IMG/VR virus record: IMGVR_UViG_3300048599_000085
Location: 1 to 41,872 of that record
DNA from: a virus
DNA length: 41,872 nucleotides
Reading direction: 5' to 3' (one strand)
Under the pieces are notes generated by a model. It saw only the letters and a program-made list of their open reading frames with translations. It searched no databases and was not told where the DNA came from. This document shows positions 3,112 to 37,731 of this stretch, piece by piece. A program made the position numbers and the translations under genes. Numbering within the stretch: position 1 is the stretch's first letter; the number at the start of each line of letters is the position of its first letter.

Positions 3112-3258
3112 TCAGACCCTCCGGTCTTGGAGGCGGCGTGTCAGCCGCTCAGGATCAGCACCGGCAAGGATTTCCTCTCGCGCGGCGTCGGACAGTTTCA
3201 TCCGGCGCGCTTGCTGATCGAGGGACAGGAGGTGGTTGGCTCGGTCCTGGGAGGTCAT
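3112..3258 (-). CDS. small hypothetical protein (48 aa)
   Basis: Internal Met of track ORF 3112..3498 (MTSQDRANHLLSLDQQARRMKLSDAAREEILAGADPERLTRRLQDRRV). ATGA overlap with the stop of 3255..3389. Confidence 0.4.
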   Translation of the reverse strand: MTSQDRANHLLSLDQQARRMKLSDAAREEILAGADPERLTRRLQDRRV

Positions 3259-3389
3259 GCGGAGATACCTCTGCGAAGTGCGTCGCAAATCAGAATGTGA
3301 CGGCAGTAAGCGTCCAGTTCGCCTGACAGATACGCGGCGCAAGCCTTCGATGCGTGCCAATCGGCAATGGCGTAGAGGATGGCGGTCAT
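3255..3389 (-). CDS. small hypothetical protein (44 aa)
   Basis: Internal Met of track ORF 3255..3473 (MTAILYAIADWHASKACAAYLSGELDAYCRHILICDALRRGISA). ATGA overlap with the stop of 3386..3622. Confidence 0.4.
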   Translation of the reverse strand: MTAILYAIADWHASKACAAYLSGELDAYCRHILICDALRRGISA

Positions 3390-3622
3390 GCGATCCTCCA
3401 ACAGCGGTACTCGCCCTTGATCGGATCGACGCAGCGGATCGAATACTTCCGCCCATTGCGACGGCCGAACCAACTTGCGGCGGTTCGAAGAGCGTCAACC
3501 TCGTTACGATTGACGGTGAACGAATCTCCGACCTGCATTTCGGCCAGCGGGTACTTGCGGCGACGACCGCGAGATTCAGGCATCGCTACGCCACGATCGA
3601 TTTTGTATTGCGCCTCCATCAT
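3386..3622 (-). CDS. hypothetical early protein (78 aa)
   Basis: ORF MMEAQYKIDRGVAMPE..KYPLAEMQVGDSFTV.. The start overlaps the upstream stop (ATGA). Confidence 0.6.
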   Translation of the reverse strand: MMEAQYKIDRGVAMPESRGRRRKYPLAEMQVGDSFTVNRNEVDALRTAASWFGRRNGRKYSIRCVDPIKGEYRCWRIA

Positions 3623-3933
3623 GCAGCCCCATCGAACTGCGGCGCGCCAACGATGCTGGCGACGGTATCGAGCGTCTGGACGTATTCAGGCGAGTGGTCA
3701 CCGATCTGCACCACGTTTGACGGATAAGATTTGGCCGTGGGTGCGATTTCCTGAGTAACCGGCTCCAACCGATAGCCGAGGTACGCGGCCAACTCCCTGA
3801 CCTTGTCCATGGCGCGGCTATGCGAGAACGGAGCCCAATCGCTGCCGACCTCTTCCCGCGCGTGACAGATCAGAAATTCCTCGGACACCTGATGCGCGAT
3901 CAGATGCGCGGTGTAGTTCTTCAGGTCCGGCAT
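3619..3933 (-). CDS. hypothetical acidic early protein (104 aa)
   Basis: Track ORF 3619..4095. Preferred start ATG at 3933 (MPDLKNYTAHLIAHQ..) with GGAGAA upstream and a TGATG overlap to the preceding micro-ORF. Confidence 0.55.
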   Translation of the reverse strand: MPDLKNYTAHLIAHQVSEEFLICHAREEVGSDWAPFSHSRAMDKVRELAAYLGYRLEPVTQEIAPTAKSYPSNVVQIGDHSPEYVQTLDTVASIVGAPQFDGAA

Positions 3934-4034
3934 CACAGTTTCTCCGTGAAAAGAACTGCCAGAACGGCAATCGTCGAAATGAACGCGGCGAGGGAAAGCG
4001 CCTCTGCGGCGAGACGGATGGCGAAGGGAAGCAT
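3933..4034 (-). CDS. 33-aa single-pass hydrophobic peptide
   Basis: Below the ORF-track cutoff. Hand translation [33 protein letters not shown]. The start overlaps the stop of 4034..4354 and the stop overlaps the start of 3619..3933, so it is coupled on both sides. Confidence 0.45.
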   Translation of the reverse strand: MLPFAIRLAAEALSLAAFISTIAVLAVLFTEKL

Positions 4035-4354
4035 CACGCTGCCCTCGGGAAGGCGTTCGCGGCTTCGAGCCCGATCGTCTGTTCGATGAAATCACGCTGC
4101 CAGTCGTTAAGCGGCTCGCCGTATTCGGACCAAAGAGCCGAGACTTCCCAAGCCAAATCCTTGGTCACATCATCGCAGATGTGCTCAACCGGGTTGCATT
4201 CGAGGACCTGAACCAGTTCTTCGTACTGGCCGTTGGCGATGTCCCGCACGACGATCTTGCGGTCCACCGAAACGGGCTGCTCCGGGATGAAATCGCCGCT
4301 CTCATGAGCCACGATCACCACGTAAACCATTCGATCCTTGATGCTGGACATCAC
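4034..4354 (-). CDS. hypothetical strongly acidic early protein (106 aa)
   Basis: ORF with about 20 D/E against about 8 K/R. ATGA overlap with the stop of the pentapeptide-repeat gene. Confidence 0.6.
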
Positions 4355-5103
4355 GCGGCCTCCTTCGCTTCAACGTATGAGTCCCGCCAAAGTCCTCGAA
4401 CCCGAGCGAGTCGGACGAGACTTCGAACAATGATTTCCGTCTCCTCTCCGAGTGGGGTGCCTCCGCGGGTAGCGGTCCAATGCTTTTGCGCCTCTTTGAC
4501 CGTGAAGAGACGGCAGCCAGCCTTTACCATCGGCTCCTTGTCGTCTGTCAGCTTCTGTAGGAAGAACGGATAGCCGTCAGAGCGGGTCTGACCTTGAATG
4601 ATCCACTGGCTGCCGAGGTCCGCGCCGTAGAGGTTCGCGCCGCCGAGGTTCGCGCCGCCGAGGTTCGCGCCGCCGAGGTCCGCGCCGCCGAGGTTCGCGC
4701 CGCCGAGGTTCGCGCCGCCGAGGTTCGCGCCGTAGAGGTTCGCGCCGTAGAGGTTCGCGCCGCGGAGGTTCGCGCCGCCGAGGTTCGCGCCGCCGAGGTT
4801 CGCGCCGGAGAGGTTCGCGCCGCCGAGGTTCGCGCCGCCGAGGTTCGCGCCGCCGAGGTTCGCGCCGCCGAGGTTCGCGCCGCCGAGGTTCGCGCCGCGG
4901 AGGTTCGCGCCGTAGAGGTTCGCGCCGCGGAGGTTCGCGCCGCCGAGGTTCGCGCCGCCGAGGTTCGCGCCGCGCTTCACCGCGGCTACTACTGCTAAGC
5001 CCATCTTCAAATATTCAGAAGCGCCGGTCGGGGCCTCGATCTCGGCGGTGAAGACCGTTGTCCCGTCCCATCGATTTTTGATGTCGAAGCTGAACTTAGC
5101 CAT
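4351..5103 (-). CDS. pentapeptide-repeat protein (25 x G-A-N/D-L-x) with distinct N- and C-terminal domains; first gene of the PL operon
   Basis: Track ORF 4351..5139. Preferred start ATG at 5103 ([18 protein letters not shown]..) with GGGAGAG 7 nt upstream; the longer start would lie inside the operator. Repeats match the A(D/N)LXX consensus. C-terminus: ..[46 protein letters not shown].. Confidence 0.85.
4606..4980. repeat. Tandem array of 23 full (plus 2 partial) near-identical 15-bp units, consensus CGCGCCGCCGAGGTT on the + strand, coding for the pentapeptide repeats
   Basis: Units are phased exactly every 15 nt from 4621 to 4965. Variation is confined to one codon (GCC/GTA/GCG/GGA on +, giving G/Y/R/S) and two T-to-C changes (N to D). 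Confidence 0.95.
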
Positions 5104-5127
5104 CGTGCTCTCCCGTTTGATGGGGAG

Positions 5128-5182
5128 ATAGTTGCACAACTAACAACATCGGTCAATATGAAAGATGTGCAACTTGCAACTT
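5128..5182 (-). promoter_or_regulatory. PL promoter with OL operators
   Basis: Minus strand reads TTGACC (5156-5151), a 17-nt spacer, then AACTAT (5133-5128), the same design as PR. Operator copies: ATAGTTGCACAACTA (5128-5142), AGATGTGCAACT (5163-5174) and TGCAACT (5176-5182). Confidence 0.6.
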
Positions 5183-5226
5183 TTTATCGGCACCGTGCCG
5201 CGCGGCCATGTCAGTCGCGGATTGGT

Positions 5227-5574
5227 CTAACTATCGTTTGTCCCTGTTTTTTTCGGAAAAGCTGCTTGGAGCATCTGTTTCATGCGTTTCAGCTCATCGA
5301 TTGAGCGGTCACGAAAAAACCGGGCGAACCAATCTTCATCAGGATGGCGGAAAATAATGTCCGGCTCGTCGGGGTAGCCAAAAAAATCTGCCAATGCGGC
5401 CTGCCAGTCCTCGCCAGGCGTAGAGCCGCTATACCATCTGGAAATCAGGCTTTTATCGGCATCTAGCGCCGTGGCGAGGTCAACAGGGCGCGAATAGCCT
5501 CGTTTTTCGGCCCATTCCCTCAAAAAATGAGGTCGCCTAGGCTGTTTCCCCCTATGGATTCGGTCGGCAGTCAT
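5227..5574 (-). CDS. CI-like prophage repressor, XRE-type HTH, no S24 peptidase domain
   Basis: 115 aa. HTH segment YSRPVDLATALDADKSLISRWYSG. Divergent from the Cro-like gene across an operator-containing intergenic region. Confidence 0.7.
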   Translation of the reverse strand: MTADRIHRGKQPRRPHFLREWAEKRGYSRPVDLATALDADKSLISRWYSGSTPGEDWQAALADFFGYPDEPDIIFRHPDEDWFARFFRDRSIDELKRMKQMLQAAFPKKTGTNDS

Positions 5575-5580
5575 CTGAGA

Positions 5581-5663
5581 ATATTAACGCTGCGGCGCAA
5601 CCTAGTCGTTAGCATGTTGTGCAACTATTCCTCTTGACTATTATTGATAGTTGCGCAACTATC
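5581..5663. promoter_or_regulatory. OR region: PR (-35 TTGACT 5634-5639, -10 AACTAT 5657-5662), a perfect 18-bp palindromic operator GATAGTTGCGCAACTATC (5646-5663), a second operator CATGTTGTGCAACTAT (5613-5628), and a candidate PRM -10 TAATAT on the minus strand (5586-5581)
   Basis: I verified the palindrome by reverse-complementing it. The operator overlaps the PR spacer and -10. TAATAT lies 6 nt upstream of the repressor ATG. Confidence 0.6.
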
Positions 5664-5668
5664 GACGT

Positions 5669-5896
5669 ATGAAAGAAACACCATTCAAGGCGTTGCTACG
5701 GGGTAGGGGCCTTCGCCTCGTTGATGTGGCTCGCGGGCTAGGCGTCGATAAGGCGACGGTCACGCGATGGGCGCGCAATGAAATACCATCGGATCGCGTT
5801 GTCGAAATTGTCCGCATCACCGGCATTCCCGCTGCCGATCTTCGCCCAGACCTAGCTACCGTATTCGCGCCGGTCCCGACGGAGCCGGGGCAATGA
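5669..5896 (+). CDS. Cro/YdaS-like HTH regulator
   Basis: Track ORF 5651..5896 starts at a TTG inside the operator. Preferred start ATG at 5669 (MKETPFKALL..). HTH LVDVARGLGVDKATVTRWARNEIPSDRVVEIVRITGIPAADLRPDL resembles the YdaS/Cro family. Confidence 0.75.
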   Translation: MKETPFKALLRGRGLRLVDVARGLGVDKATVTRWARNEIPSDRVVEIVRITGIPAADLRPDLATVFAPVPTEPGQ

Positions 5897-6159
5897 CAAC
5901 GCGCGACCTCACACCGGGGGAAATGCAAGGCTGCGCGCGGTCTGACGCGCCCGGGGCCGGCGCGATCATCATTCCATCCGCTGGTGCTCGATCTCCCGCC
6001 ATATCGCCCGCGCCGCGATCAGGGCGAGGATCAGCCACGGCAGGTAGCACCACATCCTACGATCCCGACACCGTATCGCTGGTGGTCTGGAGTTTGTTCA
6101 TCTGTCTTTGGCTCCTGATCCCGGTCATCGGCATCATTGCAATTCGTCTGTTCGAGTGA
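5893..6159 (+). CDS. questionable ORF; only the C-terminal hydrophobic part (LVVWSLFICLWLLIPVIGIIAIRLFE) looks coding
   Basis: ATGA overlap with the cro stop supports it. However, the middle (PSAGARSPAISPAPRSGRGSATAGS) is low-complexity with GC3 around 59%, typical of an off-frame read. Confidence 0.3.
   Translation: MTTRDLTPGEMQGCARSDAPGAGAIIIPSAGARSPAISPAPRSGRGSATAGSTTSYDPDTVSLVVWSLFICLWLLIPVIGIIAIRLFE
5969..6055 (-). CDS. candidate 28-aa hydrophobic peptide, antisense within the PR operon
   Basis: Hand translation MWCYLPWLILALIAARAIWREIEHQRME. GC3 is 24/28, higher than the overlapping + frame. No convincing SD. Confidence 0.3.
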   Translation of the reverse strand: MWCYLPWLILALIAARAIWREIEHQRME

Positions 6160-6264
6160 GGTCACGACGCTCTGCGCTGCAACGCCGAGCGAATGAAAAG
6201 TCGAGTGTGTGTGTTTGGTCGGACTCTTCTTCATGTCGCAACGAAACCATGAAGGAGAATCCAA

Positions 6265-6621
6265 GTGTGGACGAAGTTGGCCAAAATGAGTGTGCGTGAA
6301 GCGATGATCGAACTGGTTGGCAAGCCCGGATATGGCGAGCAGCCGCGATGGTTTGAGAAGGTTGCCAATGCCGCAAACATTTCAAAGCGCACCGCTCGCG
6401 CGCTCTGGCGGGGCGAAATTCAGGATCACAATCACCGGGCAATCGTCGCCGTCCGCCGCGCCGCAGAACTCGCCGCCGCGCGCAAAGAGACGGCCGCCCT
6501 TGCGGCTCAGTTCCGCGCCACCATCGGAGGGATGCGTGAAGTCGATGAGAGTTTTTTTGGCCCGCAGATTGATCGGCTTGAGCGCCTCGTTCGCCAGCTT
6601 GGCTCTGTGGATCGCTCCTGA
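6265..6621 (+). CDS. hypothetical early regulatory-region protein
   Basis: 118-aa ORF. GTG start preceded by AAGGAGA 8 nt upstream. Confidence 0.6.
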   Translation: MWTKLAKMSVREAMIELVGKPGYGEQPRWFEKVANAANISKRTARALWRGEIQDHNHRAIVAVRRAAELAAARKETAALAAQFRATIGGMREVDESFFGPQIDRLERLVRQLGSVDRS

Positions 6622-6637
6622 GTTGAAGGGGTAAGAT

Positions 6638-7141
6638 ATGACACCGTCACAGGCAGTTTTTCACGAGCGGCACAAGGCGATCCATCATCGCATTGAGATG
6701 GCCGCTGATCGCGCGCACTGGAACGCCAAGGCGAAGGCGGATCGGGCACGGGTATCGATTCAAGACGGGGCCGTCGCGATTTGTCACGCTTCCGAGCCGG
6801 CCGCGGCTCCCGCAAAACGTGAGCCGTGGTTCCGCATCATCGGAATGGGAGCGCCATCAATCAGGGAAATCCGTCAGGTTGTTGGCGACTACTACGGGCT
6901 CACCGTCCACGACATGACATCAGTTCGTCGGAAGGCGCGGCTCGTTCGTGGTCGTCATGTCGCAATGTATATGGCGCGAATTCTGACAAATCGATCCTAT
7001 CCGGAAATCGGGCGGCTCTTTGGCGACATCGACCACACGTCAGTGATGTTCGCCGTGAAAAAGATCGAGAAGCTACTGGACGCCGATCCCGACATTGCGC
7101 GCGAAATAGCCGAACTCAAAGATCGGATTGGGGCGCTGTGA
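6638..7141 (+). CDS. DnaA C-terminal (domain IV) DNA-binding domain protein
   Basis: C-terminal half IREIRQVVGDYYGLTVHDMTSVRRKARLVRGRHVAMYMARILTNRSYPEIGRLFGDIDHTSVMFAVKKIE matches the DnaA domain IV pattern (R....aRq.AMYL.r.lT..S...IG..FG.rDHtTV.ha). No AAA+ motifs. SD AAGGGG. Confidence 0.75.
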   Translation: MTPSQAVFHERHKAIHHRIEMAADRAHWNAKAKADRARVSIQDGAVAICHASEPAAAPAKREPWFRIIGMGAPSIREIRQVVGDYYGLTVHDMTSVRRKARLVRGRHVAMYMARILTNRSYPEIGRLFGDIDHTSVMFAVKKIEKLLDADPDIAREIAELKDRIGAL

Positions 7142-7332
7142 TGAAACCATCCATCGCGGAAATCCTCCGTCGCATTCGCCCGTTGTCGCCAGTCCACAAG
7201 GCACATCACCTGCGCGCGCTGATCGCGCTGGAGCGGCCCCGGTCAATCCGCAGGACCGAGCTTGAGGCCGCGTTGCAGGACATCGTCAATCGTCAGCTGA
7301 AGCTTGAAATCAGGCAGGAGAGAGCAACATGA
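7141..7332 (+). CDS. small hypothetical protein (63 aa)
   Basis: Internal ATG of track ORF 6826..7332 (MKPSIAEILRRIRPLSP..). TGATG overlap with the upstream stop and ATGA overlap with erf. Confidence 0.5.
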   Translation: MKPSIAEILRRIRPLSPVHKAHHLRALIALERPRSIRRTELEAALQDIVNRQLKLEIRQERAT

Positions 7333-8060
7333 GCGCGCTGGAGAAAATCAATATCATCCCGCCTGCGGAGCCGGCGGCCTTGACGCCGATGGATATGCTC
7401 AATCGTGCGGTGGGACAGGGCGCGAGTATCGAGGTTCTTGAAAAGCTAATGACGCTTCAGGAACGTTGGGAGGCCAATCAGGCTCGCAAAGCATTCGATG
7501 AGGCGATGGCGGCGGCGAAAGCCGAAGTCCCAACGATCACGAAGAACCGCGAGGTTGATTTCAGTTCATCCAAAGGGCGGACCAACTATCGGCACGAAGA
7601 CCTCGCAGAGATCGCGAGAACGGTTGACCCGATCCTGAGCCGACACGGCCTTTCATATCGATTCCGTGTGACATCCAATATTAGCGAGCCGGTCACGGTC
7701 ACTTGCATCCTCTCGCACCGCGCCGGCCATTCCGAAGAAACGACGCTCAGTGCAGGCCGCGACGACAGCGGCAACAAGAATAGCATCCAAGCGGTCGGTT
7801 CGGCCATTACCTACCTACAGCGCTATACGCTGAAGGCCGCGCTCGGTCTCGCGGCTTCAAGCGACGATGACGGCGGCGCATCCGAACAGCCGGCTTACGT
7901 CTCGACCAATCAGCTCAATCAGCTTGTCGCTCTGGCTGATGAAGTCGGAGCGGATAAAGAGAAGTTCTGCCGCTACCTGCGAGTTGGTAGCTTGGCTGAG
8001 ATACCAGCTGAGAAATTCGCCCATGCCGTTCAGCTATTGGAAGCCAAGAGGGGGAAGTAA
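7329..8060 (+). CDS. erf: Erf-family single-strand annealing recombinase
   Basis: Motifs YRHEDLAEIARTVDPILSRHGLSYRF and SIQAVGSAITYLQRYTLKAALGL are typical of the ERF family. It sits next to the exonuclease and SSB genes. Confidence 0.75.
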   Translation: MSALEKINIIPPAEPAALTPMDMLNRAVGQGASIEVLEKLMTLQERWEANQARKAFDEAMAAAKAEVPTITKNREVDFSSSKGRTNYRHEDLAEIARTVDPILSRHGLSYRFRVTSNISEPVTVTCILSHRAGHSEETTLSAGRDDSGNKNSIQAVGSAITYLQRYTLKAALGLAASSDDDGGASEQPAYVSTNQLNQLVALADEVGADKEKFCRYLRVGSLAEIPAEKFAHAVQLLEAKRGK

Positions 8061-8680
8061 TGGAGATTATCACCTGCGAGCAGGGGTCTTTGGAGTGGTT
8101 TGCGGCGCGCGCCGGTCTTGTCACGGCAAGCGAGTTCCAGACCTTACTCATGAAGGGGAAGGGCGGCGGTGAGAGCCTGACCCGAAAGACCTATATGCGC
8201 AAGCTAGCCGGCGAGATCATCACTGGCGAGCCCATGGAGGCGTTTACGAACGCTCACATGGAGCGGGGGAAGGCTATGGAGCAAGAGGCTCGCGATCTTT
8301 ACGCCTTCATGAACGATTGCGAACCGCTTCAGGTGGGGTTCATCAAATCTGGCCGTAAGGGAGCGAGCCCCGACAGTCTCATTGACGAGAGCGGAGGCTT
8401 GGAAATCAAGACCCGGCTTCCTCACCTGATGATCGAGCTTCTCGAGTCTGGGGAAATACCGTCCGAACATCTCGCCCAGATTCAAGGCGGGATGTGGGTC
8501 GCGGAGCGGGAATGGTGGGACTTCGTCGCCTATTGGCCGAAGCTTCCGCTTTTCGTGAAGCGGGTTTACCGCGACGAATCCTACATCAAGAAACTGTCTG
8601 ACGCGGTGGATCAGTTCAACGGAGAATTGGACGCGCTCGTGGATCGAATCAATGCCTATGACTTGAAGGAGGCAGCATGA
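8060..8680 (+). CDS. YqaJ/lambda-Exo-like recombination exonuclease
   Basis: N-terminus [21 protein letters not shown] plus a PD-(D/E)XK-like core ([15 protein letters not shown]). TAATG overlap with erf. Confidence 0.8.
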
Positions 8681-9135: not shown

Positions 9136-9143
9136 GTATCGCC

Positions 9144-9527
9144 ATGTCTCAAACAGTGATCCTTCATAGCCAATCTCAGCGATCATTTGCCAAGCAGATG
9201 ATTGACCGCGCGCCTATGGATGCCGTTCTGACGATCCGCGCTGCAACACGCTCGACGGACCAGAACGCGTTGCTTTGGGCGCTTCTGTCTGACGTGTCCC
9301 GAGCTAAGCCGGAAGGACGCTGTCATACAGCTGAGGTTTGGAAGAACCTGTTCATGCATGCCTGCGGTCATGCCGTGCAGTTTGAAACGGGGCTTGACGG
9401 CAAGCCATTCCCGGTCGGCTTCCGATCGTCGCGGCTGACCAAGGCGCAATTCAGCGATCTCATCGAATTTATCCATGTGTGGTGCGCGGAGAAGGGCGTT
9501 CACCTTGAAACGAGGGAGGCCGCATGA
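9144..9527 (+). CDS. ninB: NinB/Orf-family recombination mediator
   Basis: RSTDQNALLWALLSDVSRAKPEGR..WKNLFMHACGH parallels lambda NinB (RSLDQNRKLWACLGDVSRQV..WKCVF). Confidence 0.8.
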   Translation: MSQTVILHSQSQRSFAKQMIDRAPMDAVLTIRAATRSTDQNALLWALLSDVSRAKPEGRCHTAEVWKNLFMHACGHAVQFETGLDGKPFPVGFRSSRLTKAQFSDLIEFIHVWCAEKGVHLETREAA

Positions 9528-9964
9528 GCCTGTCAGCCAAGCGCCAATTCTCGCTCGACCGTGTCGATAGTATGAATACGAGCCATCGTGAGCTTGTTCA
9601 CGAGTTTGGCCTGACGATTGTGAATGCCTTCATCAAGCACGGCATTACCAGTCCGGTAGTTATTCGAGAAATTATGCGTGAGGTATGGGGTGGTGCTCGC
9701 CAAGCCGGACAGCGCGTCGGCACGCTCGGTTCCTTGGATAGCCTTCTGATCAACTCAGGATCGTCGCTAACTGCCAGCGGGTTGCAGAGGTTTCTCGCTG
9801 ACAATCATCATTTCATAGTCTCATCCGAGCCATCCCGCGCGATGATCGAGGCGAGTATGTCTGAGGTAAGCGGATTCTCGACACGATGCACGAAAGAAGA
9901 GAAGCATCGTCGCAGACTTCGTGCCGCAATTCGTGCGTCATCAACAGAGCGAGGCGTGGTATGA
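9524..9964 (+). CDS. hypothetical protein
   Basis: 146-aa ORF with ATGA coupling at both ends. Confidence 0.55.
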   Translation: MSLSAKRQFSLDRVDSMNTSHRELVHEFGLTIVNAFIKHGITSPVVIREIMREVWGGARQAGQRVGTLGSLDSLLINSGSSLTASGLQRFLADNHHFIVSSEPSRAMIEASMSEVSGFSTRCTKEEKHRRRLRAAIRASSTERGVV

Positions 9965-10314
9965 GCGTTCAGTCACCTCGCAAATCTCTCACCCGTAATA
10001 AGCGTGCTGAGCTTTTCTTAGAGCATAGCGGCATCTGCTATCTGTGTGAGCGTCCTATCAACGCAGCCAGGGGCGAGGCTTGGGAGGTCGAGCACGTCGA
10101 GGCACGAGAGATTAGCGGTCGTGACGATTGGGCCAATCTGCGCCCGGTGCATATCGTCTGTCATAAGCCAAAAACAGCAGCCGACAAGAAGGTAATCGCG
10201 AAATCGAACCGGGTTCGCAATCGCAATCTTGGCATCAGAAAGCCGTCCAGCTTTGCTTGCTCCCGCAACTCTATCTGGAAAAAGAAAATTGATGGATCGG
10301 TGGTGCGCCGATGA
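9961..10314 (+). CDS. HNH endonuclease (HNHc type)
   Basis: Start ATG at 9961 (ATGA overlap). Motifs CYLCERPI..WEVEHVEAREISGRDDWANLRPVHIVCHKPKTAAD. Confidence 0.8.
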   Translation: MSVQSPRKSLTRNKRAELFLEHSGICYLCERPINAARGEAWEVEHVEAREISGRDDWANLRPVHIVCHKPKTAADKKVIAKSNRVRNRNLGIRKPSSFACSRNSIWKKKIDGSVVRR

Positions 10315-10871
10315 AGCGTCCCGAGGAACAGATTCAGCGGGCCGTCGTGTCGCATCTGAAAGCGAGGTCCATGCCTGGCATTGTTAAATACGGGAAGGGA
10401 AATCGATGGTTGAAGGAAACCGTAACGGAGCGTTTTGATAGATTTACAATACCGGACCCGAACAGTGGATGTCTCCTTTGGCTAGGATCGAATGATCGCA
10501 ACGGTTATGGCCAGATGCGTGTTGAGGGAAAGCTTCGATTTGCTAGCCATATTTCTCTTGAAATAGCTGGGAAGCCAGTTCCGGTAGGAATGAACGCGTT
10601 GCATCGATGCGACAACCCAGCCTGCGTTAATTCTGAGCACTTATTTATCGGAACTCAACGCGACAACGTCGATGACATGCACAAAAAAGAACGTGGGAAT
10701 TTATCCGGTCTTGCAATTGGAAGAGGTCATAACCGTCTATCGGATAGACTCCGAGCGGACGCAAAATCTCTTTTCATGAATGGCCTCAGCGGCTCTCAAA
10801 TCGCCCGCCATCTCAATATCAGCAAGACTACTGCCTGCGCCTTGACGAGAGGGTGGAGGGCGTTGCCGTGA
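10311..10871 (+). CDS. HNH_3-type homing endonuclease with C-terminal HTH, carrying a 23-codon N-terminal copy of the VRR-NUC 5' end
   Basis: CLLWLGSNDRNGYGQMRV..ALHRCDNPACVNSEHLFIGTQRDNVDDM (HNH_3) and GLSGSQIARHLNISKTTACALTRG (HTH). N-terminus KRPEEQIQRAVVSHLKARSMPG aligns with [22 protein letters not shown] of the next gene. Sharp GC3 drop after 10379. Confidence 0.8.
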   Translation: MKRPEEQIQRAVVSHLKARSMPGIVKYGKGNRWLKETVTERFDRFTIPDPNSGCLLWLGSNDRNGYGQMRVEGKLRFASHISLEIAGKPVPVGMNALHRCDNPACVNSEHLFIGTQRDNVDDMHKKERGNLSGLAIGRGHNRLSDRLRADAKSLFMNGLSGSQIARHLNISKTTACALTRGWRALP

Positions 10872-11254
10872 ATAGACCGGAACAAGAAATTCAAAAATTA
10901 TTATTCAAGCATATTCGGTCGCGAGCGATGCCTGGCGTATTTGCCTTTCATTGCCCGAATGGCGGGAAGCGTTCGAAAATAGAAGCATCTATTTTCAAAG
11001 GACTTGGGGTCAAGGCTGGAATTCCAGATGTTCTTATCTTCTACCGCGCCCAGATATTCGGGCTTGAGCTCAAGGCCGACAGTGGACGCCTGACGCCGAT
11101 CCAGCGGCAAGCCTTGAATGAGATGGAAGTGGCCGGGGCCAGAACGGCCGTCGCTCACAGCCTCGATGAGGCGCTGGTGACCCTGGAATGCTGGGGCGTG
11201 CTGCGTCGGGACGGGAATCGCAGTTTTACAACACCGGAGGGAAAGCATGTCTGA
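10868..11254 (+). CDS. VRR-NUC domain nuclease
   Basis: GTG start overlapping the upstream TGA (GTGA). PD-(D/E)XK signature [19 protein letters not shown] and [13 protein letters not shown]. Confidence 0.8.
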
Positions 11255-11513
11255 CGTGACGATTGGACACAATTCAGCAACGGCCGTTGCGGCCGATCAG
11301 TTGCGCGCGATCATCGAACGGGTGGAGCGCCTGGAGGAGGACAAGAAGGCGATCAGCGACGACATCAAGGATATTTATGCCGAGGCCAAGGGCAACGGCT
11401 ACGACGTCAAGGCGCTACGCACGATTGTCCGCCTGCGTAAGCAGGATGCCGATGAGCGTGCCGAACAGGAGGAAATCCTGGAATCGTACATGCATGCGAT
11501 GGGGATGGTATGA
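11247..11513 (+). CDS. DUF2312 / GapR-like DNA-binding protein
   Basis: [69 protein letters not shown] matches the UPF0335/GapR pattern. SD GGAGGG. Confidence 0.85.

Positions 11514-28983: not shown

Positions 28984-28987
<4 letters not shown>
28646..28987 (+). CDS. small virion/fibre-associated protein
   Basis: 113-aa ORF with a TAATG start and ATGA coupling to the collagen-like fibre gene. Confidence 0.5.
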
Positions 28988-30735
<1,748 letters not shown>

Positions 30736-36684: not shown

Positions 36685-36706
36685 TCAAAGTCCACTGATA
36701 GTCCAC
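36685..36706. repeat. candidate integrase arm-type site (P' arm): TCAAAGTCCACtGATAGTCCAC
   Basis: Second copy of the 22-bp repeat, abutting the int stop codon. Confidence 0.5.
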
Positions 36707-37731
36707 TACTTCCTGCGTCGTTTTTCGACCGGCAATCGGTCTGCAAGCCGCGCCGTCTCTGTCGGCTCGGTGTGAGCGTATCGCCTTGCTGATGCCGGGT
36801 CTTTCCAGCGCCCGGTGTCCACCAGATCGTAAGTGTCGAGCTTCCCATAGCGACGCATCCACGTCGCCCATGTGTGAGACAGCATGTGAAATCCGCCCTG
36901 CCGGAACGGCAGATCGATGCCCGCCGCTTTCTTGGCCTGCTTGAGCATGTCGCGTGTCCGGCCGTTAATGCCGAAACGGAACAGCTTTTGATCGGCCGGC
37001 CGGCCTAGCCCACGCGGATGATTTGCCAGCGCCGCAATCAATGCTGCCGGCAGGAACACCGACCGTGCATCGCCGTTCTTCGTCTCTGGCAGGTAGATTG
37101 CTTGCCGCTCAAGATTGACGTGACGGATGCGAACATTCAGGGCCTCGCCAAGGCGCATCCCGGTGTAGCAGAGATACCGTAGGAACAGCCCGAACTCGGT
37201 GTCTACCTTGTCGGCAGACTTGAACAGCGCAAACGCCTGCTCAGGTTCCAGCCATGTGGTGTGCCGCTTGCCGCGCCAGCCCTTGGGGCGCTTCAATTTG
37301 TTGTCGATGCCGACATGTTTCAGCACCGACGAAACCGGCGTGTAGAAGTTCCGGTTCCGATACGCCGCCGATCCTTTGGGGAAAGCCGCTACGGCCCCGG
37401 CGTCAATTCTCGCCTGATCCAGATCGGATATCGCTTCGCGGCCTAGCTGCTCAATAGCCTTGATCAGGAAGCGGCGCTCACCTCCCGCATTCATGTAGGA
37501 TATGGCAGCGCCGGCAAATGTCATCGGTTCTGGCTTTCTCTCGACTAGCTGCGGGCCTGTTCGATACTCACCACGTTTGATCTGCTCTTCCCATTCGCGC
37601 ATGACCTTGGCGGCCTGCCGCCGCTCGCCAGCCTTAGTGCTTCGGTTAACGTAGATTCCGAGGAAGGTGCCCCGGACGGAGAAGTATGGCGTCCTGCGGG
37701 CCTTTGACGGCGGGATGAGCTTAAGCGGCAT
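36706..37731 (-). CDS. int: tyrosine recombinase / phage integrase
   Basis: 341 aa. Box I YTGMRLGEAL, beta-hairpin ETKNGDARSVFL, box II FHMLSHTWATW...GRWKDPASARRYAH (Tyr). Ser sits where HxxR normally has Arg. Adjacent to the tRNA fragment. Confidence 0.9.
   Translation of the reverse strand: MPLKLIPPSKARRTPYFSVRGTFLGIYVNRSTKAGERRQAAKVMREWEEQIKRGEYRTGPQLVERKPEPMTFAGAAISYMNAGGERRFLIKAIEQLGREAISDLDQARIDAGAVAAFPKGSAAYRNRNFYTPVSSVLKHVGIDNKLKRPKGWRGKRHTTWLEPEQAFALFKSADKVDTEFGLFLRYLCYTGMRLGEALNVRIRHVNLERQAIYLPETKNGDARSVFLPAALIAALANHPRGLGRPADQKLFRFGINGRTRDMLKQAKKAAGIDLPFRQGGFHMLSHTWATWMRRYGKLDTYDLVDTGRWKDPASARRYAHTEPTETARLADRLPVEKRRRK

Follow-up and report, generated by a model that had tools for sequence, protein, structure and literature searches.

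A phage pentapeptide-repeat protein behind an early left promoter carries a conserved C-terminal domain and is a candidate early accessory protein

The first gene behind the putative early left promoter (PL) of a temperate phage codes for a protein of 250 aa in which a pentapeptide-repeat region, predicted to form a beta-helix, precedes a C-terminal domain of ca. 75 residues. This domain is the mark of a large and hitherto undescribed family; every context examined was a phage or prophage contig. For the pentapeptide-repeat proteins of phages, annotation usually goes by the fold, and they are assumed to be DNA mimics of the Qnr kind. We tentatively favor another explanation, to which we would give a little less than even weight, i.e., that this is an early accessory protein, for host takeover or counter-defence, with the C-terminal domain as its working part and the helix as a stalk. 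The early accessory role had already been proposed in the initial annotation of this DNA and fits the contexts in which the relatives are found. The family provides testable host-takeover or counter-defence candidates in phages of Alphaproteobacteria and beyond.

Position of the gene in the immunity region

The whole stretch of DNA that was analysed (41,872 nucleotides, from now on the window) is from a temperate phage whose portal is P22-like and whose immunity region is lambdoid; the window also encodes Erf, an exonuclease, TerL and an integrase. The gene under study is found at 4351..5103 (minus strand, stop codon at 4351-4353), and its translation is identical to the letters quoted originally. 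It had been described as the first gene behind PL, with a Shine-Dalgarno sequence (SD) and a leader of ca. 18 nt, and both the sequence and the PL-type layout under repressor control bear this out. The putative promoter and leader (5104..5156, minus strand), inferred from the sequence and from a mirror similarity to the PR region, comprise a -35 box TTGACC (5156-5151), 17 nt of spacing, a -10 box AACTAT (5133-5128) and a leader of ca. 18 nt (about 5121-5104) with the SD GGGAGAG (5114-5108), followed by the ATG at 5103. The same arrangement, TTGAC(C/T)-N17-AACTAT, stands mirrored before a cro-like gene (5669..5896, plus strand; P22_Cro/YdaS in Pfam, below the cut-off, and HTH_3 on the ORF 5651-5896), the inverted similarity covering 47 nt (5116-5162 versus 5628-5674). 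The ATG of the cro-like gene is 6 nt past the -10 of PR, so that its mRNA is probably leaderless. A strict sigma-70 scan of 3300-6700 called no promoter, PL included, and the PL assignment therefore rests on this mirror symmetry between PL and PR and on the statistics of the operators.

In a pattern search of the 41.9 kb the palindrome ATAGTTGCNCAACTAT gave 5 strand-matches, at three sites, versus 0.49 expected. All fall in the two intergenic regions that flank a gene for a helix-turn-helix (HTH) protein (5227..5574, minus strand), with none elsewhere in the window. This gene is repressor-like (Pfam HTH_31, E=9.8e-6; phrog_8 and phrog_4, transcriptional regulator/repressor) and lies between the two operator regions. 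On the left side, the operator-like palindrome OL1 ATAGTTGCACAACTAA (5128..5143), detected by pattern search, overlaps the spacer and the -10 of PL, and a second, weaker operator-like copy (5160..5180; a member of repeat family D1 with 71% identity to the reference copy) is located upstream of the -35. On the other side, the OR-type operators (5613..5662) comprise a perfect palindrome at 5647-5662 and a weaker copy at 5613-5628. Read in this way, the layout is OL/PL - repressor - OR/PR, in which, in silico, the promoter is overlapped by operators that are shared with PR and flank the repressor gene, as in a lambdoid PL operon.

The gene lies directly 3' of the repressor gene and on the same strand. 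We found neither a terminator nor a strong structure between the two (z = -1.3), and some expression of 4351..5103 in the lysogen may therefore occur. This is a position like that of rexAB or sieB, in which a prophage defence or superinfection-exclusion gene expressed in the lysogen would be expected downstream of the repressor gene, and orf-232 of the Salmonella phage ST64T, which has ral and gene 17 on either side in the early left operon, would be consistent with such a role. Phage L, in turn, does not have the sieB that P22 carries in its early left operon (10.1101/2020.10.05.325894). However, an operator-covered promoter is found directly 5' of the gene, no family of PADLOC-DB v2 matched at E<=0.1, and relatives or analogues are present in an Aeromonas Autographiviridae phage, in the Caulobacter phages RW and JessA and in large myoviruses of Listeria and Bacillus, all of them taken as virulent from their genome type or from the literature. 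A lysogenic defence role appears to us quite unlikely.

Repeat array, predicted fold and DNA mimicry

The proposed architecture of an N-terminal cap (aa 1-45), an uninterrupted repeat region and a non-repeat C-terminus of 85 aa stood except for the number of repeats, which is 24 and not 25; the ca. six beta-helix coils stood as well, 24 in-phase units being six coils. The cap (4969..5103, minus strand) is predicted by AF2 as a beta-hairpin (aa 2-9 and 16-24) followed by a helix (aa 29-43). A match to phrog_31567 spans aa 5-72, and the same type of cap is found in the proteins P0004, P0010, P0018 and P0023 and in gp021 of JessA. The repeat region (aa 46-165; 4609..4968, minus strand) consists of A(N/D)LxG units, 14 ANLGG, 4 ANLYG, 3 ANLRG and one each of ANLSG, ADLGG and ADLGS. 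Pfam PF00805 recognizes it far above the gathering cut-off (E=6.4e-41, 137.9 bits versus 20.2), and its 24 contiguous units compare with the eight or more contiguous A(D/N)LXX units that define the superfamily. Its DNA repeats in tandem every 15 bp (4612..4973; by TRF, 24.1 copies with 93% matches) and is by a wide margin the strongest tandem repeat of the whole window; the table of units has 11 variant codons that are non-synonymous and none that is synonymous. This near-perfect DNA repeat has expanded recently. An ORF on the plus strand (4594..4998), with AEVRA repeats, was discarded as a gene, being the antisense shadow of the array. The C-terminal domain (aa 166-250; 4354..4608, minus strand) is predicted by AF2 to have four strands and two helices, and it carries the motifs R174-S-D-G-Y, A195-G-C-R, H208-W and T212-R together with E221. 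The exact protein has no database record, and the DNA of 3300-7300 gave no match to GenBank phages.

That the repeats would form a beta-helix was also borne out by the structure prediction that had been suggested as a check, with a beta-helix of the right-handed quadrilateral type in the AF2 model (pLDDT 86.6 overall and 84-96 across the array). The C-terminal domain modelled separately had a pLDDT of 88.7, while the pTM of the full model was 0.63, which makes the orientation of one domain to the other uncertain. The best PDB matches of the model by Foldseek were pentapeptide-repeat proteins (5di5, rmsd 0.8 A), with probability 1.0 to Np275/276, HetL, MfpA, Qnr and AlbG. The closest ones in both structure and sequence are the designed consensus solenoids PDB 4ycq, 4yei and 5di5 ('beta1'), with 56-60% identity and an rmsd of 0.8 A over 129 columns. 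The natural array is nearly as regular as these solenoids made to a consensus. They are synthetic proteins and the match is uninformative on function.

The original proposal for this fold was B-DNA mimicry, with the beta-helix occupying the DNA site of gyrase, of a nuclease or of a defence sensor in the manner of MfpA, Qnr and AlbG or of Ocr and Gam. The fold itself, with MfpA, QnrB1 and AlbG among the structural matches, and the early position of the gene, as in Ocr or Gam, would favor it, and some relatives are indeed acidic (gp016 of RW has a net charge of -16). The charge of the protein points the other way. Counted from the residues of the sequence and not as surface potential, its net charge is +5 (pI 9.38), with +1 on the helix (2 acidic and 3 basic residues), versus -6, -9 and -8 (pI 4.9-5.3) in QnrB1, QnrA1 and QnrS1. 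By sequence charge, then, it does not have the electronegative, DNA-like surface of Qnr and MfpA, nor the strong acidity of the DNA mimics that act against restriction or nucleases (Ocr, ArdA, Gam). Being basic and not acidic, it is probably not a DNA mimic. Charge is not conserved within the family of the C-terminal domain either (median +1, range about -16 to +8). The NCBIfam models for Qnr, MfpA, HetL and PipB matched far under their cut-offs (Qnr NF033086, 37 bits versus 240; MfpA NF000349, 43.8 versus 360). Besides, the functional form of MfpA and Qnr is a head-to-head dimer held by a C-terminal helix of roughly 12 residues (PMC8145042). This short helix is absent here, and in its place is the 85-aa domain of the predicted four strands and two helices. 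Finally, there are relatives with fewer than four units or with solenoids that are not made of pentapeptides. We consider mimicry of B-DNA very improbable.

The C-terminal domain family and its genomic contexts

A search for this domain behind pentapeptide repeats in other phages had been suggested, and it was found in many of their proteins. A profile search with the domain recovered at least 668 clusters of 50% identity with E<=1e-3, of which 310 reached E<=1e-10, besides 36 independent members from a separate search; the window sequence was the seed of the profile, so that its own membership, with all motifs present, is given by construction. In every member a beta-solenoid precedes the domain, and the type, cap and length of this solenoid are freely variable. 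Classified by regular expressions, the N-terminal regions of 185 of these proteins (36 search matches and 150 among the matches listed in the profile search, one being shared) were 118 pentapeptide, 29 GNAxV-type and 3 GGTx-type. Among 178 sequences, 15 positions are at least 90% conserved (R174, D176, G177, F180, A195, G196, C197, R198, A205, H208, W209, T212, R213, L218 and E221), E221 at 100%. Conserved to this extent, and also present behind other solenoid types, the domain is probably the functional element. Scanned alone, it matched nothing significant among PDB sequences (best E=0.09 to ribosomal eL39, spurious), PDB folds (best E about 1), Pfam (DUF7196 at E=0.015 only) or PHROGs, and its structural matches in BFVD were only the C-termini of other phage solenoid proteins. 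In agreement with the initial annotation, we found no assigned function for phage pentapeptide-repeat proteins with this domain in the literature, Pfam or PHROGs, and the literature searches gave no functional study of any phage pentapeptide-repeat protein. There being no homologue of known function, we propose this role only from where the gene lies and when it would be expressed.

The solenoid varies much in length. Among the close relatives counted the number of units goes from 1 to 27, with no preference modulo 4, and in some the helix has 1-3 units, i.e., below one coil, even if the short arrays of metagenome contigs may have been collapsed in assembly. Each array is internally homogeneous, with a codon consensus that differs between phages. 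Near-identical isolates differ as well, by a 15 bp indel between the arrays of phages L and ST64T (10.1101/2020.10.05.325894) and by a 375-bp deletion in GB2A relative to RW (PMC11053796). The match was within 600 nt of the 5' end of the locus, often a contig end, in 15 of 73 related loci. The 15-bp repeat appears to break or collapse assemblies, and many database entries for such proteins are consequently partial.

The next two genes of the window, thought originally to form a module with 4351..5103, are certainly acidic. One (4034..4354 or 4034..4351, minus strand, 106 or 105 aa) has a net charge of -12 and a pI of 4.3, its start overlapping the stop of 4351..5103 (TGATG), and the other (3619..3936) has a net charge of -7. 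The module, however, did not hold. In 73 related loci these neighbours are absent beside the gene with the C-terminal domain, except in one relative with 95% identity, L084, and homologues of the 4034..4354 protein occur with no such gene nearby, so we have rejected it as a partner. Neither tblastn of the window neighbours against 84 loci nor clustering of flanking ORFs gave a conserved partner gene; the only recurring flanking genes are those of Erf, exonuclease and NinB, in a minority of loci. In L084, in spite of the 95% DNA identity, the homologue has 3 units and a different cap versus the 24 units of the window gene. A 44-aa ORF of the window (MTAILYAIADWHASKACAAYLSG..., 3255..3389, minus strand) looks like the stump of this alternative cap; over 21 aa it is 71% identical (78% over 72 nt) to the L084 homologue at its N-terminus.

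The relatives sit among small genes of phage early regions, niches that resemble the sites where model phages carry anti-restriction and anti-nuclease genes. In 8 of 60 related loci the gene has, on its own strand, an Erf gene that starts 250-870 nt downstream, and after it come a YqaJ-type exonuclease and NinB. In lambda, gam has the same position. This, and the Erf and exonuclease encoded in the window, would be consistent with a recombination accessory like Gam or Abc, in which the domain inhibits AddAB/RecBCD or otherwise assists the Erf-exonuclease pair. But the operon of the window gene is the one opposite to that of erf and exo, a gene for a single-strand annealing protein is missing from the surroundings of most related loci, other relatives are next to DNA polymerase genes or in early regions upstream of an RNA polymerase gene, and the protein does not resemble Gam or Abc, all of which makes this role unlikely. 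Among architectural analogues, one is from an Autographiviridae phage, in the presumed early region upstream of its RNA-polymerase gene, and others are in a P22-like PL operon. A Listeria phage also carries a gene like those of pentapeptide-repeat proteins in its long terminal repeat (PMC12282133).

If the protein is an early accessory factor as we propose, it would be made immediately upon infection or induction and would be dispensable. Its C-terminal domain would probably bind a macromolecule of the host, or of a rival phage, stoichiometrically, through a polar face composed of the hairpin with RSDGY, the turn with AGCR and the helix with HW..TR. The beta-helix, instead of offering a surface shaped like DNA, would be a rigid stalk or spacer able to evolve. 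The invariant Cys, His, Glu and Arg could mark an enzyme instead of a binder. As an enzyme, the domain would modify a host target covalently via Cys197, His208 and Glu221 (with R174, D176, R198 and R213), and the solenoid would recognize the target as in NleL and SopA, in which pentapeptide repeats precede a HECT-like part. The polar residues are unusually strictly conserved inside about 50 aa, and there is this precedent, with NleL among the fold matches. But the domain has only about 75 residues and matches no enzyme fold or Pfam family, conserved Gly, Arg, Asp and Glu in turns and helices can be structural, and a variable, interchangeable solenoid would be a poor recognition module. We find an enzyme improbable.

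A wider generalization, which we put forward as speculative, is that these proteins are a new class of phage early effectors, with a conserved alpha/beta 'head' shown on a fast-changing beta-solenoid stalk. The head, with its invariant Arg, Asp, Cys, His, Trp and Glu, would neutralise a widespread host function, e.g., AddAB/RecBCD or a defence sensor, while slippage and recombination in the repeat-coding DNA would change the type and length of the stalk repeats. Such a hypervariable stalk with swappable caps might let the phage evade recognition or tune the reach of the head, and the repeats could be hot spots of recombination by which the head cassette changes its place in the early operon, as it seems to have done between the window and L084.

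Comparison with known systems

With lambda Gam, P22 Abc and T7 Ocr the likeness is one of niche only (early, dispensable, and promoter-proximal or next to recombination genes); these act as acidic mimics of DNA or bind nucleases specifically, whereas the window protein is basic and has no similarity to them in sequence or fold. MfpA, Qnr, AlbG and McbG likewise have A(D/N)LXX units folded into a beta-helix that is quadrilateral and right-handed, but they are acidic (-6 to -9 in Qnr), often have loops and have no alpha/beta C-terminal domain. The type III effectors NleL, SopA and PipB2 are similar in using a pentapeptide helix as a scaffold before a separate C-terminal functional domain, and NleL matches the window model through its helix. 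However, what these have at the C-terminus, a HECT-like ligase or a kinesin-binding region, is far larger and not related, and all three are secreted bacterial effectors.

Nearer in organization are the proteins of the P22-like Salmonella phages, ST64T/L orf232, epsilon34 gp42 and ST104 orf19, with a cap, a pentapeptide array and a C-terminal domain of about 90 aa, as here. Their niche is also the same: in a P22-like temperate phage the gene is promoter-proximal within the PL operon. The C-terminal domain is of a different sequence family (YVRAGCQNHT..EEW..MDG), in which a strand-AGC(R/Q) motif is common to both; two runs of hhalign between the window domain and the ST64T/JessA-type domain aligned 17 columns only, with probabilities of 7% and 30%, too little to establish homology. 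True homologues of the domain are gp016 of the Caulobacter phages RW, RLK, KcrB and GB2A and gp1 of EBPR siphovirus 2 (40-49% identity by tblastn), annotated as 'pentapeptide repeat family protein' or hypothetical protein. They keep RSDGY and AGCR, as well as the succession of cap, pentapeptide array and C-terminal domain. RW differs in its about 46 units, its acidity and its 62-kb Caulobacter phage genome, but its array is likewise a 15-bp DNA repeat, in 46 copies, that varies between isolates.

The repeat protein and its fold

The gene at 4351..5103 (minus strand) is a real feature that the initial annotation had described correctly, and the protein quoted there is the exact translation of the ORF (250 aa). 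A longer version from a TTG start at 5139 is unlikely, as it comes without a ribosome-binding site. The product is a pentapeptide-repeat protein whose array is hypervariable and whose C-terminal domain is widespread yet undescribed. Its N-terminal cap (aa 1-45) precedes 24 pentapeptide units in phase (aa 46-165) and a non-repeat C-terminus of 85 aa (aa 166-250, hereafter the C-domain); the array had thus been recognized, but with 25 units. Fourteen units read ANLGG, four ANLYG and three ANLRG, with one each of ANLSG, ADLGG and ADLGS. Pfam PF00805 matches with E=6.4e-41. In the AlphaFold2 model (alignment of 36 relatives, mean pLDDT 86.6) the cap forms a beta-hairpin plus a helix, a regular beta-helix spans aa 46-165, and the C-domain has four strands and two helices. 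The top Foldseek matches in the PDB were all pentapeptide-repeat proteins. Among them are solenoids designed from a consensus (rmsd 0.8 A at 56-60% identity), Np275/276, HetL, MfpA, QnrB1, AlbG and the NleL helix. Model and structure search both give the pentapeptide beta-helix, so the prediction of some other fold, which the initial annotation had named as a refutation, did not come about.

From this fold the protein had been read as a possible B-DNA mimic directed against host topoisomerase, RecBCD/AddAB or a DNA-sensing defence. That reading of the niche is sensible, but the mechanism is probably wrong. With 23 basic against 18 acidic residues the protein is basic (net +5, pI 9.38), its helix contains 2 Asp and 3 Arg, and the exposed helix positions are nearly all Asn and Gly, whereas QnrB1, QnrA1 and QnrS1 (from plasmid records) have net charges of -6, -9 and -8 (pI 4.9-5.3). 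MfpA and Qnr act as head-to-head dimers via a short C-terminal helix (PMC8145042), in whose stead the repeat protein has its 85-aa domain, and the NCBIfam scores are far below the cut-offs (Qnr, 37 bits vs. 240; MfpA, 44 bits vs. 360). Across 185 family members the net charge is centred on +1 (interquartile range -2 to +3), so that charge is not what the family conserves. In spite of the shared fold, a true DNA mimic is thus highly improbable.

A recently expanded 15-bp array

At the DNA level the units form a tandem array with a 15-bp period (4612..4973, 24.1 copies, 93% identity), whose strength no other repeat in the window approaches. The consensus unit is GCG-AAC-CTC-GGC-GGC, and the 11 codons that depart from it are all non-synonymous. 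The complete lack of synonymous differences between units indicates a very recent expansion. By our reading of the unit table, the exposed fourth position accounts for 8 of the 11 variants (Gly to Arg, Tyr or Ser) and the fifth position for one, the other two being N-to-D changes. The arrays of Caulobacter phage RW (46.4 copies at 92%) and of an alphaproteobacterial prophage (L014; 26.5 copies, 82%) have the same pattern with codon consensuses different from that of the window, so that each lineage expands its array independently. Published indels between near-identical isolates agree with this, namely a 15-bp deletion, equal to one unit, between phages L and ST64T (10.1101/2020.10.05.325894) and a 375-bp deletion within the pentapeptide gene of Caulobacter phage GB2A relative to RW (PMC11053796). 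In the closest subfamily the number of units, which can be reduced by array collapse in short-read assembly, ranges from 1 to 27 (median 6) with no modulo-4 preference, which leaves cap and C-domain free of any fixed rotational register.

Of 73 related loci, 15 have their match no more than 600 nt from the 5' end of the locus, often a contig end. Short-read assemblies probably break or collapse at the 15-bp arrays, and database repeat numbers would therefore be unreliable. Along similar lines, contigs apparently start inside or beside C-domain genes at L004, L021, L026, L027, L029, L031, L032, L034, L044, L051, L066, L075, L077, L080 and L082. Hundreds of Salmonella database entries of the orf232 family are marked 'partial' (94-158 aa; proteins P0186-P0305). 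On the 24-kb contig L006 the pentapeptide gene and four downstream genes appear twice (7001-8669 and 9137-11435), either by segmental duplication or as an assembly artefact.

The conserved C-terminal domain

Searched on its own, the C-terminus retrieved 36 proteins from a set of 5.8 billion sequences. A profile built from them, run on 1.84 billion representatives, matched 668 clusters at E<=1e-3 and 310 at E<=1e-10; the domain was C-terminal in every case. Conservation reaches 90% or more at 15 positions across 178 diverse copies (R174, D176, G177, F180, A195, G196, C197, R198, A205, H208, W209, T212, R213, L218 and E221), the last being invariant. Nothing significant was found in Pfam, in PHROGs (domain scanned alone), or among PDB sequences or folds (best fold E about 1). 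In a viral predicted-structure library its matches (TM-scores 0.5-0.77) were confined to the C-terminal ends of other solenoid proteins of phages, which carry pentapeptide, hexapeptide, 'polymer-forming' or leucine-rich repeat annotations. What precedes the domain was typed with our own regex in 185 collected proteins of this family (RSDGY/AGCR motifs). It found pentapeptide repeats in 118, GNAxV-type repeats behind a characteristic MKYELT...GDLGGWIE N-terminus in 29 and GGT(I/F) repeats in 3, the region being short or unclassified in the others. One 176-kb viral contig (IMGVR_UViG_3300032272_000001) carries three separate C-domain genes (L050, L055, L071).

A small polar domain so strictly conserved, next to a solenoid, cap and charge that vary freely, points to the C-domain as the putative working part and to the helix as a stalk. 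It could conceivably be a small enzyme, with the conserved residues to its credit and the empty PDB fold search against it; we find this unlikely. No functional work on phage pentapeptide-repeat proteins was found in the literature. While the gene, its place among the early genes, its fold and its family are established here, the function is inferred: a niche that is early, dispensable and mosaic speaks for counter-defence or the takeover of the host.

Early operon and relatives

The window belongs to a temperate phage (GC 54-62%) with an Erf-like annealing protein, exonuclease, large terminase, P22-like portal and integrase. The two intergenic regions flanking a repressor-like HTH gene (5227..5574, minus strand, 115 aa) are mirror images (72% over 47 nt) and share the palindrome ATAGTTGCNCAACTAT, which has three sites there (5 strand-matches against 0.49 expected) and none elsewhere in the window. 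Each contains TTGAC(C/T)-N17-AACTAT, one directed toward the cro-like gene and the other toward the repeat gene. These sites escaped a strict E. coli-type scan, so the leftward early promoter PL is predicted from symmetry and operator placement. As annotated before, the leader is ca. 18 nt with a start near the predicted 5121, and the Shine-Dalgarno GGGAGAG is present, 4 nt before the ATG (6 nt from the GGAG core). No terminator was found between the repressor and repeat genes, and some read-through may occur in lysogens. This would suit a lysogenic exclusion gene, a role that we consider quite improbable for a gene placed behind PL.

The predicted leader (5104-5127) can fold, its 5' CUCCCC pairing with GGGAGAG. 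Judging by the interval 5575-5671, both immunity genes look leaderless: 6 nt separate the PR -10 AACTAT from the cro-like ATG (5669), and 6 nt likewise a TAATAT hexamer (5586-5581) from the repressor-like ATG (5574). That hexamer has no more than a weak -35, in keeping with a PRM-type promoter. A 583-aa late protein (ORF 28984-30735) has 27-nt and 9-nt tandem repeats at 29329-29425 (plus strand), where AAGGGCGAC reads Lys-Gly-Asp, suggesting a collagen-like Gly-X-Y stretch, perhaps of a tail fibre.

The next gene (4034-4351, minus strand, 105 aa) overlaps the repeat-gene stop with its start and is strongly acidic (net -12, pI 4.3), by charge a better DNA-mimic candidate than the repeat protein. 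It matches nothing in Pfam or PHROG and belongs to a small uncharacterised family (24 homologue clusters). It had been guessed to belong to the same module, but homologues at 58-65% identity have no C-domain gene nearby, which makes it an independent gene. In the related locus L087 its homologue is the first gene behind a similar promoter and palindrome, with a similar leader, CTCCCCATCACCAGATCGGGGAG (3940-4000).

From the final array units onward, through the C-domain and the next gene, the related locus L084 shares 95% identity with the window. Its cassette has only 3 units, an N-terminus (MSITLAIADWHATKACAANL) unlike that of the window, and a place further down the operon, after homologues of window genes ~3934-4035 and 3619-3936. 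The corresponding place in the window holds a 44-aa ORF (MTAILYAIADWHASKACAAYLSG..., 3255-3389, minus strand) resembling the N-terminus of the L084 pentapeptide protein (L084 494-560) and closing with a single pentapeptide-like unit, AAYLSG. This ORF is apparently a stump that remained when the repeat/C-domain/acidic-gene cassette moved to the PL-proximal site, where it appears to have gained a new cap, apparently by recombination within repeat-coding DNA. L084 also matches the window at 3262-3097 and then at 40108-39787 and 39624-39571 (97-100%), so that the leftward operon seems to run on past the ends of the window toward the integrase (36706-37731), suggesting that the 41.9-kb phage genome is roughly complete and circularly permuted.

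All inspected relatives are in phage-like early regions with many small ORFs, and no conserved partner gene was found in them. The commonest neighbours are NinB, a YqaJ-type exonuclease and Erf, whose start lies downstream on the same strand, at a distance of 250-870 nt, in 8 of 60 loci. A Gam-like nuclease inhibitor would be at home in such company; it is an unlikely reading, and host takeover or counter-defence remains our preferred one. In several relatives (L005 and L025) the gene is in an operon divergent from a cro-like gene, as in the window.

Aeromonas phage Aer_P220 (ON624112; L011 2536-3186) has an unannotated 216-aa ORF with a GNARV-type solenoid and an AGCQ-type C-domain; the 102-aa 'MFS-type transporter' annotated in another frame of this repeat looks like an artefact. 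Architecturally analogous proteins are found in other phages with a different C-domain family, whose homology to the one described here our comparison did not demonstrate. In the early left operon of P22-like Salmonella phages the gene is flanked by ral and gene 17, in Caulobacter phage JessA it adjoins the DNA polymerase gene, and in the Aeromonas phage, one of the Autographiviridae, it is the unannotated ORF, upstream of the RNA-polymerase gene, presumably also an early region.
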